From Sphyrna mokarran (Eukaryota), in assembly GCA_024679065.1 (NCBI GenBank), contig JAGIQG010000005.1:47926001-47990000 (forward strand): 64,000 nucleotides of DNA, in the 5' to 3' direction. Positions 3,981-64,000 of this stretch are shown here, piece after piece (within the stretch, counting starts at the first letter, position 1; each line of letters starts with the position of its first letter). The position numbers and the translations under genes are program-made. The notes under the pieces were generated by a model. That model ran no database searches and was not told the DNA's origin. It was given only the letters and a program-made list of their open reading frames with translations.

Positions 3981-4257
3981 ACTGCTGCCTCAAAACACCA
4001 AGGACCCAGGTTCAATTCTGACCTCAGGTGTGGAGTTTATACATTCTTCCCATGTCTGCGTGGGTTTCCACTGGGTACTCCAGTTTCCTCCCACAGTCAA
4101 AAGATGTGCAGGTTAAGTTGATTGGCCCTGCTAAATTGCCTCTTAGTGTCAGGGGGACTAACAGGGTAGGTATATGGGGTTACAGGGATAGGGCCTGTGT
4201 AGAAATGTTGCAGACTTGATGGGCTGAATGGCCTCCTTTCTGCATTGTAGGGATTCA
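3981..4257 (+). mobile_element. HE1-like V-SINE
   Basis: B-box-like GGTTCAATTC, V-domain GGAGTTT...GTTTCCTCCCACAGTCAAAAGATGTGC and CR1-like tail GATGGGCTGAATGGCCTCC. Confidence 0.85.
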
Positions 4258-12316: not shown

Positions 12317-12890
12317 CATAGAGTTTCACAGCATGGAAATAGGCCCTTCGGCCCAAGTAGTCCGTGCCGCCCTCTTTTTAACCACTAAGCTAGTTCCAAT
12401 TGACCGCATTTGGCCCACATCCCTCTATGATCATCTTACCATGTAACTGTCAAAAATAATTTTTAAAATACAGAATTGTACCCGTTTCTACTACTGCCTC
12501 TGGTAACTTCTTCCAGTCACTCTGAATGAAAAAAAAAGTCCCTCTGGACACTTTTGTACCTCTCCTCCCCTCACCTTAAACCTATGACCTCTAGTTTTAG
12601 ACTCTCCTACCTTTGGAAAAAGATGTTGACTATCTTCTACCTCATTTATACCCCTCATTATTTATAGACTTCTATAAGATCACCCGTAAGCCTCTTACAC
12701 GCCAGGGAAAAAGTCCCTCTCTACCTAATCTCTCCTTATATCTGAAACCATCCAGTCCCGGTAGCATCCTAGTAAATCATTATGATATAATTATATTTCT
12801 ATAAGTTGACCAAAACTGAACGCAGTATTCCCAGTGTGGCCTTAGTAATGTCTTGTACAACTTGAACAAGACGTCCCAACTCCTGTATTT
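12317..12890 (-). mobile_element. CR1 LINE 3' fragment
   Basis: Tail CATAGAGTTTCACAGCATGGAAATAGGCCCTTCGGCCC. Colinear with 61520-62270. Confidence 0.85.
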
Positions 12891-19919: not shown

Positions 19920-20848
19920 TAGAGCACTGCAGCCTCAGAGAACCGCAGCGTCAAGGTACTGCAGCTTAGGGTATTGCAGCTCAGGGTACTGTAGCTTAGG
20001 ATATTGCACTTCACGATACTGCAGCTCAGGGTATTACAGCTTAGGATTTTGCAGCTCAGGGTATTGGAGCTGAGGGTATTACAGCTCAGAGTGCAGCATT
20101 CAGAGCATTGCAGCTCAGGGGTATTATAGCTAAGGGAATTACAGCTCAGGATATTACAGCTCAGAGTGCTGCAACTCAGAGTACTGCAGCTCAGGATATT
20201 ACAGCTCAGGGTTTTGGAGCTCAGGGTATTACAGCTTACAGCACTGCAGTCAGCATATTACAGCTCAGAGTGCTGCAATTCAGGGTATTGCAGCTCAGGG
20301 TATTACAATTCAGACCATTGCAGTCAGCATATTACAGCTTAGGGTGCTGCAGCTCAGGGTATTACAGCTCAGGGTATTACAGCTCAGAGTGCTGCAGCTC
20401 AGGGTATTGCTGCTCAGGGTATTGCAGCTCAAAATATTACAGCTCAGAGTGCTGCATTCAGAGCATTGCAGCTCAGGTTATTGCAGCTCAGGACATTACA
20501 AGCTCAGAGTCTGCAGCTCAGGATACTGCATTTTGGAGTACTGCATCGCAGGGTATAACAGCTCAGGGTATTGCAGCTCAGGGTATTACATCTGAGGGTA
20601 TTGCAGCTCAGGCTGCTGCAGCTCAGGGTATTGCAGCTCAGGGTATTGCAGCTCAGGGTATTACAGGTCAGGGTACTGCAGCTCAGGGTATTACAGCTCA
20701 GAATGCTGCAGCTCAGGGTATTGCAGCTCAGAGTGCTGAAACTCAGAGTACTACAGTTCAGGTATTACAGCTCAGGTTGCTGCAGCTCAGACTATTACAG
20801 CTCAGAGTATTACAACTCAGGGTATTACAACTCAGGGTATTGCACCTC
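19920..20848. repeat. 15-bp minisatellite (GCTCAGGGTATT[A/G]CA)n, left part, about 60 units
   Basis: Directly visible tandem array. It produces the QGIAA / LRVLQ / SSGYY repeat ORFs. Confidence 0.95.
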
Positions 20849-23225
20849 ATAAAACAGAACATTACAGTGCAGTACAGGCCCTTTGGCCCTCAATGTTGCG
20901 CCAACCTGTGAAATCAATCTAATGTCCATCTAATCTACACTATTCCAATATCATCCATATGTTTATCTAATAACCATTTAAATGCCCTTAATGTTGGTGA
21001 GTCCACTACTGCTGCAGGCAGGGCATTCCATGCCTTTACAACTCTCTGATATCTGTCCTATATCTATCACCCCGCAATTTAAAGCTATGTCCCCTCGTGC
21101 TAGCCATCTCCATCCAAGGAAAAAGGCTCTCACTGTCCACCCTACATAATCCTCTGATGATTTTATATGCCTCTATTAAGTCACCTCTTAAAGTTATTCT
21201 CTCTAACAAAAGCAGCCTCAAGTCCTTCAGCCTTTCCTCATAAGACCTTCCTACCATACCAAGCAACACCCCGATAAATCTCCTCTGCACCCTTTCCAAT
21301 GCTTCCACGTCCTTTCTATAATGTGGCAACCAGAACTGTATGCAACACTCCAAGTGCTCCAGAGTTTTGTACAGCTGCAACATGACATCATGGCTCCTAA
21401 ACTCAATCACTCTACCAAGAAAAGTTAACACACCATATGTCTTCTTAACAACCCTATCAACTCGGGTGCCAACTTTCAGGAATCTATGCACATGGACACC
21501 GAGATCTCTCTGCTCAACCACATTACCAAGTAACATATCATTAGCCTAGTACTCTGTATTCATGTTACTCCTTCCAAAGTGAATCACTTCACATATTTCC
21601 ACATTAAACTCCATTTGCCATCTCTCAGCGCAGTTCTGCAGCTTATCTATGTCCCTCTGTAACCTGCACCATCCTTCCACACTGTCCACAACTCCAGTGA
21701 CTTTAGTGTCATCCACAAACTTGCTAATTCATCCTTCTATGCCCTCATCCAGATCAGTTATAAAAATGACAAACAGCAGTGGCCCCAAAACAGATCCTTG
21801 CAGCATACCACTAGTAAATGAACTTCAGGATAAATATTTCCCATCAACTGCCACCTTCTTGCAGTTAGCCCATTTCTGATGCTAAGTCGCCCTTAATCCC
21901 ATGGTCTTGTATTTCCTGCAATAGCTTATCATGGTAAATCTTATGAAACATTTTACTGAAATCTGTGTACACGAAACAACTGCTTTATCCTCATCCACCT
22001 CTTTGGTAACCTTCTCAAAGAACTCAATAATGTTTGTGAGACACGACTGACCAAAGAACAAAGAACAACACAGCATGGGAAACAGGCCCTTTGGCCCAAT
22101 GAGCCCGCGCCGTCATTTTAACATTGTGAGTTCCCTCTTCCACCCATGATCTTTGTCTATGCTTATGGCACTCCACACTGGAAACCAGATTGAGGGGAGA
22201 CAATTTAGGGACAATTTGTCACACCAACCAGCCTAAGAGCACATCTTTGGAATGTGGGAGGAAACCAGAACACCCGGAGAAAACCCATGCAAGCACGGGG
22301 AGAAAGCGCAAACTCCCATAGATACTGGCCTAAATCATGTATCTGCAGTGCAAACAGTGATAGTCACTGTCGTGTTGCCCATCAGCTAGTCCAGTTTAAG
22401 CATATTCTAACAATGTGAAGCACTAGGCTACTCTTGAAACATCCAAGAGCAGCCCTCGCACAACCCACTGTGTGTATGCCCCTTGTTGGTCAACAAGGCG
22501 GACCGAAACACCCGTGGATTAAAAGAGAAAAACCCTTCACAAAACCATCCCTAATCAAATTATTCCTTTCTAGATGATTATAAATCCTATCTCTTATAAT
22601 TCTTTCCAAAACTTTGCCCACAACAGAAATAAGGCTCAGTGGTCTATAAAACCAGGGTTGAACCTATTCCCCTTCTTAAACAAGGGGGCAATATTTGCTA
22701 TCCTCCAGTCTTCTGGCACGATCTCTGCAGACAATGATGACCTAAAGGTCAAAGCCAAAGGCTCTGCAATCTCCTCCCTAGCCTTCCAGAGAATCCTAGG
22801 ATAAATCACATCTAGCCCAAGGGACTTACCTATTTTCATACTTTCCAGATTCCTCTTATGAACCTCAATCCTGTCTAGTCTGATAGCCGTATCTCAGTTT
22901 TCTCCTCAATAACATTGTCTTTTTCCTATGTAAATACAGATGACAAATATTCATTTAGCACCTCTCCTATCTCTTGGGACTCCTCTCACAGCTTCCCACT
23001 ACTGTTCTTGACTGGTCTTAATCTCACCCTAGTCATTCTTTTATTCTTGACATACCTATAGAAAGTATTAGGATTTTTCCTTGATCCTGTCTGCCAAAGA
23101 CTGTACTTTCGTGGCTCTTCTTAGCACTCTCTTTAGGTCCTTCCTGGCTAACTTATAACTCTCAAGCGCCCTAACTGAGCCTCCATGTCTCATCTTGACA
23201 TAAGTCTCCTTCTTCCTCTTCACAA
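20849..23225 (-). mobile_element. 5'-truncated, decayed CR1 (HER1-like) LINE inserted in the minisatellite
   Basis: ORFs 21036..21536, 21882..22076 and 22636..22839 carry CR1 ORF2 motifs (PEDWRIANIAPLFKKG, SCLTNIIEF, QRDLGVHVH, LERVQRRF, TRGHSFKL). The 3' tail is at ~20850. Confidence 0.92.
22052..22532 (-). mobile_element. Nested insertion: structured segment + decayed tRNA head + V-SINE core + CR1-type tail
   Basis: Interrupts the host LINE (GACACGACTGAC|...|CCCTTCACAAAACC) and is colinear with 63253-63725. Confidence 0.85.
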
Positions 23226-23735
23226 GTTCAGGGCATTACAGCTCAGAGTGCTGCAGCTCAGAGTGCTGCAGCTCAGAGTATTACAGCTCAGGGTGCTGCA
23301 GCTCAGGGTATTGCAGCTCAGAGTGCTGCAGCTCAGGGTGCTGCAGCTCAGGATATTACAGCTCGAGGTATTACGGCTCAGAATATTGCAGTTTAGAGTA
23401 TAATAGCTCAGGATATTACAGTTCAGGCTGCTGCAACTCAGGTTATTGCAGCCAGGTTATTGTAGCTCAGCGTATTATAGCTCAGGATATTATAGCTCAG
23501 GGTGCTGCAGTTCAGGGTACTGTAGCTCAGGGTATTGCAGCTCAGGGTATTGCAGCTCAGTTTATTGAAACTCAGGATATTATAGCTCAGTGCTGTAGCT
23601 CAGGGTATTGAAGCTTAAGGTACACTCAAGGTATTGCAGCTCAGGATTTTACAGCTTAGGGTATTATTGTTCAGGATATTGCAGATCAGGGTTCTGCAGT
23701 TTGGGGTACTGCACTCAGGGTACTGAAACTTCAGG
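23226..23735. repeat. 15-bp minisatellite, right part, about 34 units
   Basis: The same unit resumes immediately after the LINE. Confidence 0.95.
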
Positions 23736-26871: not shown

Positions 26872-27190
26872 GGGGCAGAAAGATCGCACAGTGGCCAGCA
26901 ATGCTGACTCAAAGCGCCAGGGACCCGGGTTCGATTCGGCCTTGGGTCACTGCTTGTGTGGAGTTTGCGCATTCTTCCTGTATGGGCCTGGGTTTGCCCC
27001 GGATGCTCTAGTTCCGTCCAATAGTCCAAAGATGTGCAAGTTAGACGGATTGGACATGCTCAATTGCCACTTAGTGCCCCAATGTGCGAAGGTTAGTTAT
27101 GATAAATATGGGGATAGGGTCTAGGTGAGATGCTTTTTTGGAGAGTCAGATACGGACTCGATGGGCCAAATGGCCTCCTTCTGCATTGTG
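26872..27190 (+). mobile_element. HE1-like V-SINE
   Basis: tRNA-like head with GGGTTCGATTC, V-domain and tail GATGGGCCAAATGGCCTCCTTCTGCA. Confidence 0.88.
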
Positions 27191-37589: not shown

Positions 37590-37895
37590 ATTTTTATTTA
37601 TTATCAGTATCACAAGTAGGCTTACATTAACACTGCAATGAAGTTACTATGAAAATGCCTTAGTTGCCACACTCTGGCACTTGCTCAGGTACACTAAGGG
37701 AGAATTTAGCATGGCCAATGCCCCGAACCAGCACATCTCTCAGACTGTGGGACAAAACAGGAACACCAGAGGAAACCCATGCAGAACTAGTAGAATGTGC
37801 AAACTCTATAGAGACAGTGAACTAAGGCTGGAATTGAACTCGGGCCCCTGGCATTGTGAAACAGCAATGCTAACCACTGTGCCAACATGCCACCC
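37590..37895 (-). mobile_element. V-SINE with alternative tail
   Basis: Reverse strand shows a tRNA-like head, V-domain and the tail shared with 36140-36365. Confidence 0.8.
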
Positions 37896-63252: not shown

Positions 63253-64000
63253 GAACAAAGATCAAAGAACAAAACAGCACGGGAAACAGGCCCTTTGGCC
63301 CAACGAGCCCGCGCCGTCACCCCGACGTTCCCACCTCTACCCGTGATCCCTGTCCACGTTTATAGATCTATGGATTAAAAACCAAATTTGAGACAACTTA
63401 GGGAGAATTTATTTTGCCAATTAGCCTAAGAGCGCATCTTTGGGGTGTGGGAGGAAACCGGAGCACCCGGAAAAAACCCACGCAAGCACGAGGAGAATGC
63501 GCAAACTCCCACTGACACAGGCCCAAATCCATGTATCTGCACAGCACAGCAATAGTCACTGAGCTGTCGTGCTGCCCATCAAATGGTCCAGGTCAAGCGT
63601 ACACTAACGACGTGAAGCAGTAGGATACTCTCGAAAAAGATCCAAGAGCAGCCCTCTCACGACCCATCGCGTGTATGCCCCTTGTTAGACAACAACGTGG
63701 ACCAAAGCACCTGTAGAATAAAAACAAGTACATCAATATCATCATCTATTTACACACTTCCCAGGGACTCCCAAGGCTCATGATCCTATTTTAAATCAGT
63801 TTTCTATACCCCTCCATTCCCATTCTGTTCATGTGCCCATCTAAGTATTTCTTAAATAACTCCAGAGTACCTGTCTCCACCACTTTACTTGGCAGCGCAT
63901 TCCATACCCCCACCACCTCTGTGTGAAAAAACTCCCTCAGGCATCCAAATTATATCTTACCCCCCTCACCCTAAGCCCATGACCCTCATGCTATTCGAGT
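63253..64000 (-). mobile_element. CR1 ORF2 3' end followed by an extended 3' region containing the same structured segment and V-domain
   Basis: Minus strand reads VVGVWNALPSKVVE...FKKYLDGHMNRMGMEGYRKLI* (stop 63791-63793), then sequence homologous to 22052-22532. Runs off the window edge. Confidence 0.85.

Follow-up and report, generated by a model that had tools for sequence, protein, structure and literature searches.

The window, a 64,000-nucleotide stretch of the Sphyrna mokarran genome (contig JAGIQG010000005.1, positions 47,926,001 to 47,990,000), carries two minus-strand copies, A and B, of the same structured domain, which belongs to the 3' untranslated region (UTR) of a single CR1 LINE lineage. 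The features of the two copies and of the element that hosts copy A are as follows.

22533..23227, minus strand: upstream part of the broken ORF2 of another CR1, the host of the copy A insertion (six-frame translation)
22512..22532, minus strand: copy A's pyrimidine tract and acceptor position, where GG has replaced AG; copy A is 5' truncated at this point
22388..22504, minus strand: structured domain of copy A (subfamily A1, old and CpG-decayed), with a closing helix, hairpin 1 at 22481-22498 and a long arm at 22399-22480
22319..22380, minus strand: decayed tRNA-type SINE head of copy A, with an altered A box and a B box broken by deletions (alignment to the genome's free SINE head)
22107..22318, minus strand: V-SINE-type body and variable linker of copy A
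22052..22106, minus strand: CR1 3' tail hairpin and short tandem end repeats of copy A
21500..22051, minus strand: downstream part of the same host CR1's broken ORF2 (RT region), continuing further left
63791..64000, minus strand: end of the CR1 ORF2 of copy B, with the stop codon at 63793-63791
63737..63790, minus strand: variable 3' UTR spacer of copy B (81 nt from the ORF2 stop to the AG)
63711..63736, minus strand: branch-point-like motif, pyrimidine tract and CAG with the look of a 3' splice site, intact in copy B
63585..63703, minus strand: structured domain of copy B (subfamily B, young), with hairpin 1 at 63680-63696 and the long arm at 63596-63679
63512..63577, minus strand: decayed tRNA-type SINE head of copy B
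63311..63511, minus strand: V-SINE-type body and linker of copy B
63256..63310, minus strand: CR1 3' tail hairpin and end repeats of copy B

Copy A is a 5'-truncated piece sitting in the ORF2 of another CR1; copy B retains its own ORF2 end and extends ~1,160 nt beyond the domain on its 5' side, past the window edge. The two align over ~480 nt at 78%. A sequence-only reading of this DNA had placed the minus-strand closing helices at 22504-22388 (copy A) and 63703-63585 (copy B), and these coordinates are exact; all of the helices it named are recovered in the predicted folds, which share an architecture of closing helix, small hairpin and long arm. The predicted folds have energies of −50.4 kcal/mol for copy A (z −3.86) and −47.3 kcal/mol for copy B (z −2.96), each equaled by 1 of 200 shuffles, and the plus-strand folds are weaker (z −2.2 and −2.5, respectively). 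Two 15-bp minisatellite arrays (19945-20849 and 23228-23722) flank the CR1 relic hosting copy A, which looks as if it had been inserted into one minisatellite array. Other SINE-body or tail matches in the window, at 4032-4109, 26960-27037, 37693-37806, and 12327-12382, lack the structured domain.

Relatives of both copies are abundant in the 2.77-Gb genome, with 2,796 candidates for copy A (the best 40 at ~90% identity) and 1,048 for copy B (the best 40 at ~98%). There are 191 distinct full-domain copies in the data set, of which 170 fall into six subfamilies (A1, 22 copies; A2, 11; B, 73; C, 28; D, 18; and E, 18) and 21 outliers were excluded; the A1 and A2 copies were picked by likeness to copy A, and the subfamily consensuses, which are majority calls with CpG restoration, are mutually related. 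All six subfamilies are organized in the order ORF2 stop, spacer, CAG|G, domain (~120 nt), SINE, and CR1 tail. Upstream of the domain, copies enter the C terminus of a CR1 ORF2 or end at random truncation points, and downstream lie a decayed copy of the genome's free tRNA-headed SINE head (with a broken B box), a SINE body, and the CR1 tail; the domain is thus part of the LINE 3' UTR. The same upstream context led to rejection of the domain as a Pol III SINE head, and no Pol III A or B boxes are found in it by pattern.

We take the carrier to be of the CR1 clade from its ORF2 C-terminal motif and tail type. It has a same-strand upstream ORF2 with an APE-type endonuclease and reverse transcriptase, is 5' truncated (37 of 49 B copies within ~900 nt), and ends in a fixed 3' tail of a hairpin and short tandem repeats; the domain lies ~350 nt from this tail, and the lineage retains the conventional tail hairpin. 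Young relatives have open frames of 500 to 840 aa, and the 839-aa frame of one D copy (L224) matches Pfam RVT_1 (E 5e-34) and Exo_endo_phos_2 (E 5e-10); the 52-aa ORF2 piece inside the window has no Pfam match. The embedded SINE (63311-63577 and 22107-22380) is promoter-dead, yet it is steadier across the subfamilies than the domain or ORF2, with divergence between subfamilies of 0.01 to 0.18 for the SINE head and body and 0.04 to 0.36 for the structured domain. The embedded-type head is present on 17 of 128 SINE-body matches in 600 kb. The SINE is presumably of the V-SINE/HE1 type, a label drawn partly from a table of PMC3747384. The HE1 V-SINE and the HER1 CR1-type LINE of sharks and rays (PMC3747384) are a close parallel to the part 3' of the domain, a decayed copy of the genome's free tRNA-headed SINE that ends in a CR1 tail. 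In this lineage, however, the SINE has been taken into the LINE and its promoter is dead; the structured domain is not part of the SINE, and in A1 and B it showed no alignment to the free SINE head.

Subfamily B alone has at least 18,182 copies genome-wide, as counted with one 24-letter pattern. Twelve 50-kb stretches taken at round coordinates contain 15 matches, three of them from one local repeat, which scales to a total of ~69,000 copies (15 in 600 kb; Poisson range, ~39,000 to 114,000). Subfamily B is ~3-fold denser than the genome mean in a 4.4-Mb region at the start of contig C1 (G000:C1:88861-4377032), with 100 exact matches, and the numerous small indels of copies in L271-L272 could reflect errors of assembly.

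Covariation between copies A and B had been offered as support for the structure, but it does not count as evidence. Thirteen paired columns differ between the two copies, and the single two-sided change, G-C to A-U, has CpG positions at both letters and is explained by CpG decay in the dead copy A, which differs from its own subfamily consensus at 11 positions, seven of them CpG sites. Among 32 other A-type copies, both changes are present in six, only one or only the other in seven each, and neither in 12, as expected for independent events (Fisher p 0.72). Among 45 B copies, non-CpG changes acquired after insertion are found at 1.4% of paired and 1.2% of unpaired sites. Because mutation affects both kinds of site at equal rates and the CpG changes are independent, dead copies are uninformative on selection, and genuine covariation is confined to comparisons between the subfamily consensuses.

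At the level of the subfamilies, the structure of the domain is very probably under selection. All six consensuses fold better than expected on the sense strand (z −3.2 to −5.5), with antisense values of −2.0 to +0.35. In a window scan of four families, the z score of the domain is the lowest in two, tied or near-tied in D, and close to that of one ORF2 window in C, and the domain folds independently within the consensus fold of the whole 3' part. A parsimony tree has 57 substitutions, 36 of them in 94 paired columns (0.38 each) and 21 in 26 unpaired columns (0.81 each), a difference in rate with a p of 0.006, or 0.039 without D. Simulations with the same number of changes on each branch were run under three mutation models (300 each), which included transition and CpG bias and fixed paired and unpaired counts. 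The observed tree has 19 broken pairs versus 37 to 40 in the three nulls, and a mean energy of −54.6 versus about −44 (0 of 300 in every case); with D removed, at most 1 and 3 of 300 simulations reach the observed broken pairs and energy, respectively. In a repeat with controls, the domain has a z of −4.9 (0/70), or −6.4 on a second tree, and seven controls (antisense, four ORF2 windows, and two SINE windows) show no signal (z −1.6 to +0.9).

Two-sided changes number 5 versus 1.2 to 1.9 expected (P 0 to 0.04), although one sits in the decayed hairpin of D and is probably accidental, and without D there are 2 versus 0.5 to 0.9 expected (P 0.10 to 0.23, not significant). The four credible two-sided changes are at arm pairs, and three of them pass through a wobble or mismatch present in another subfamily. 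Across 13 real copies, pairing holds in 96.5% of cells, a level reached by 0 of 500 shuffles, compared to 36 to 45% when the partners are slid, and RNAalifold, applied to 13 aligned genomic copies as the sequence-only reading had proposed, agrees with the pair counter, for rows that are related and from which the structure was itself derived. This derivation biases the broken-pair and paired-cell counts, and the energy statistic is unaffected. There is no A-to-G excess in the domain (0.0058 versus 0.0053 in ORF2 and spacer), and thus no ADAR-type editing footprint of a duplex in vivo.

The long arm is predicted to form 34 pairs over 85 nt, including G-U pairs, with small internal loops and a variable terminal loop, and the closing helix of the three-way junction is nearly invariant in five subfamilies. 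In the young subfamily D, hairpin 1 has decayed and is deleted in some copies (5 deletion-type and 59 other D motif matches among the fetched loci, a non-random sample), and new pairs close the former junction to give a single unbranched rod of similar energy. What the lineage conserves is thus the long irregular helix rather than the three-way junction. A conserved reading frame in the domain was considered and rejected, as the terminal loop differs by 2 to 3 nt between subfamilies.

A cmscan search against Rfam gives no gathering-score matches in the whole window, and at E≤10 none overlaps the domain of copy A or B; the classes without a match on the domain include tRNA, 5S, 7SL, Y, vault, snRNA, snoRNA, microRNA (miRNA), ribozymes, and internal ribosome entry sites (IRES). 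The SECIS core (RUGA...AA...GA) is found on 0 of 6 sense strands. The hammerhead core, CUGANGA and GAAA at a three-way junction, is absent from the sense strand of all six consensuses, and the HDV-like fold, a nested double pseudoknot (P1-P2-P3-L3-P1.1-P4) with a catalytic C, is found on 0 of 12 strands with a strict descriptor and on 3 of 6 sense strands with a loose one, not common to all; these patterns, like those for SECIS and the Pol III boxes, are uncalibrated descriptors. A covariance model built from 13 copies gives 44 matches over 1.05 Mb, all at LINE-domain places known from a DNA profile, and there is therefore no remote or free-standing relative in these 1.05 Mb. A degenerate 24-letter motif has no matches in metagenome and viral contigs. 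A full-text literature search found no account of the domain, including in the accessible portions of PMC5499810, PMC6887750, and PMC8535693, and the terms "splic," "secondary structure," and "ribozyme" have 0 occurrences in the accessible text of a vertebrate CR1 paper (PMC13343379); Repbase or Dfam may list the family under another name. The domain is real and, by the models above, selected, and is undescribed within the literature and Rfam searched. The proposal that the element contains an undescribed, selected structured RNA module thus stands on the subfamily data and not on the two copies originally cited for it.

A second feature accompanies the domain. Seven bases before the closing helix, all six consensuses have a branch-like motif, a pyrimidine tract (pyrimidine fraction, 0.71 to 0.82), and CAG|G, which together are the sequence features of a 3' splice site. 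The spacer from the ORF2 stop to the AG is 164, 163, 81, 103, 21, and 19 nt in the six subfamilies, and as it shrank from 164 to 19 nt the branch-like motif, pyrimidine tract, and CAG|G were retained in all six; selection on the acceptor-like motif is suggested. One chimeric copy (L336) has an A2-type spacer joined at the acceptor to a B-type domain.

The reading that best accommodates these features, with a probability of a little under one half (~0.47), is that the 3' UTR fold is kept in active master copies as a cis-acting signal for mRNA stability or export; if the structure is taken to be under selection, then export or stability is somewhat better than an even bet as its job. Selection in the active masters would retain the long irregular helix, whose arm of ~34 pairs, G-U pairs among them, is interrupted by small internal loops and may provide a functional surface, and host RNA-binding proteins would bind the fold and stabilize or export the unspliced LINE mRNA. 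Shape-reading host proteins are the most likely partners, because the fold is located in the mRNA after the stop codon and before the tail and can be remodeled as long as the long helix stays, and the domain likely helps the element RNA to survive or to leave the nucleus rather than to cut itself. The pyrimidine tract and AG could recruit U2AF- or PTB-type factors with little real splicing, and the lineage may have captured an entire module (intron end, structured exon, and V-SINE) into its tail. That CR1 domesticated a terminal-exon module in this way, with an unused 3' splice site and an RNA rod together forming a CTE-like export or stability signal, is a more specific and doubtful proposition.

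The CTE of MPMV and the RTE of IAP are likewise structured cis elements located after the last ORF, in carriers whose RNA must stay unspliced. Structured export elements after the last ORF are also described for MusD (the MTE) and LINE-1 (a 3' element) (PMC4588558), and the requirement for unspliced RNA is common to the MusD carrier. At ~120 nt, the domain is smaller than the MTE (~400 nt), and no conserved pseudoknot or kissing loop was found in the six consensuses. It also differs from the CTE, RTE, and MTE in belonging to a CR1 LINE, and is likened to them by position and kind, the sequence comparison being through Rfam only.

CR1-type LINEs are thought to require just a small tail hairpin, and the rod could serve the element's own proteins or copying, either as a second ORF1p or ORF2p site or as a self-contained fold that shields the tail hairpin, which reverse transcriptase must recognize, from mispairing with the long captured UTR. 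This alternative is unlikely, although the same selection signal and the independent folding of the domain fit it. It also has precedent, as stringent LINEs depend on a 3' stem-loop that is bound by ORF2p (PMC4176376) and needed in cis, and the stem-loops of ZfL2-1/ZfL2-2, UnaL2, and CR1 are 3' UTR structures kept by compensatory change (PMC4176376, PMC3747384). However, the stringent-LINE stem-loop is small, lies at the extreme end, and is also present here in conventional form, so that the domain is an extra and much larger structure ~350 nt upstream; the alternative also leaves the conserved acceptor-like motif unexplained.

The long arm might instead be a Drosha or Dicer substrate, yielding small RNAs or limiting the element RNA. 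Its 34 pairs over 85 nt and variable terminal loop are close to pri-miRNA geometry, and the stem length fits a pre-miRNA, but this is improbable given that there is no Rfam miRNA match, that the invariant letters are scattered with no invariant 20-nt block in either arm, that the stem has several internal loops, and that cropping would destroy the transposition template.

It is quite improbable that the acceptor is truly used, with the domain opening a last exon spliced from the LINE 5' UTR or from host genes and the fold belonging to that short RNA. The acceptor features of all six consensuses favor it, as does a donor-like site that immediately precedes ORF1 in a long D copy, but the genomic copies show little trace of such splicing. 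A purine stands at −3 in 333 B copies, and of 30 viewed, 27 are point or indel variants and 3 are truncations; another 160 B copies have nonstandard −6/−5 letters, and the 30 viewed comprise 14 variants, 1 chimera, and 15 truncations that lie in unrelated DNA with no common exon. None of these 30 plus 30 B loci (56 distinct) is spliced. All 20 such D copies were viewed: 17 are truncations, 2 are variants, and one has a GT..AG-shaped deletion of 516 nt; 0 of 20 are joined to the 5' UTR donor. The deletion copy, L350 (G000:C668:13222118-13222137), is missing 516 nt from ORF2 to the acceptor, beginning with GT and ending with AG, which would suit splicing, but the junction is single in the genome, has a weak donor, and is fitted equally well by GT microhomology. 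L350 separately lacks hairpin 1 through a different deletion. Junctions landing on the AG thus amount to 1 ambiguous case among 76 distinct genomic loci viewed, and at the sequence level there appears to be no sign of a recurrent spliced retrocopy of the domain. Assembled contigs from four sequencing runs (coded organisms A, G, and D and a metagenome) cover the domain bins at ≥82% likeness in 4 of 4 runs, with their RNA status uncertain and DNA not excluded. The spacer bin of run X8 is nearly uncovered, which proves nothing, and no GT..AG joint onto the acceptor occurs among the 15 contig joints listed (there are 18 more), which is not evidence against splicing.

It is very improbable that the domain is a passive relic of a captured structured RNA, with pairing persisting through short history and transition and CpG bias. 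Inserted copies do decay neutrally, CpG decay accounts for the signal between A and B, D does without hairpin 1, and the domain sequence is not strongly conserved, with several arm pairs broken in single subfamilies; between D and C/E, the domain (0.23 to 0.25 differences) evolves faster than four-fold sites (0.15 to 0.17), so that its divergence in C, E, and D equals or exceeds the four-fold rate. In contrast, domain differences between the A/B and C/E clades are 0.11 to 0.22 versus 0.30 to 0.37 at four-fold sites, the nulls with transition and CpG bias and fixed paired and unpaired counts never reach the observed energy, and the signal is strand-specific with G-U pairs kept, unlike DNA palindrome repair.

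A new self-cleaving ribozyme on the three-way junction, one option in the sequence-only reading, can be largely dismissed, for although ribozymes are frequent in retroelements, with HDV-like and hammerhead ribozymes of non-LTR elements as comparable structured RNAs (PMC6765202), and the closing helix is nearly invariant in five subfamilies, the junction is lost in D, neither a hammerhead core, a strict HDV-like pattern, nor a conserved pseudoknot was found with the descriptors above, the ~80 projected junction starts at the 5' edge (15/30 viewed × 160) are near the 58 to 78 from ordinary truncation and so give no sign of cleavage there, and a cut at this internal 3' UTR site would presumably split ORF2 from the needed tail, whereas the ribozymes of that paper free the element from a cotranscript.

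A second, larger selected fold in addition to the tail hairpin would point to an unrecognized step in the CR1 RNA life cycle, be it export, stability, or RNP assembly, and the six subfamilies, the hairpin-less D variants, and the young copies with open ORF2 form a natural mutational series. If the terminal-exon module was indeed domesticated as a CTE-like export and stability signal, it would be the first such element described in a CR1-group LINE, and its three-way junction would have given way to an unbranched rod during the spread of the lineage to tens of thousands of copies. The ~69,000 copies would spread acceptor-like sites across the host genome, and the lineage would thereby have seeded ready-made splice acceptors genome-wide.

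Several individual copies have unusual organizations. L139:3024, L140:8350, and L142:2388 are near-identical partial copies, with the acceptor and the 5' two-thirds of the domain, that lie in a locally repeated unit and have at least 1.5 kb of upstream sequence in common. Two B copies, L322 and L342, have an inverted piece of their own domain at the 5' end, resembling a fold-back or twin-priming product. The long D and C copies L232 (~4.8 to 3.9 kb upstream of the domain) and, similarly, L229 have a TATA-like motif in the 5' region, and the long D copy has a ~200-nt tandem repeat together with the donor-like site, a strong one, directly before ORF1.
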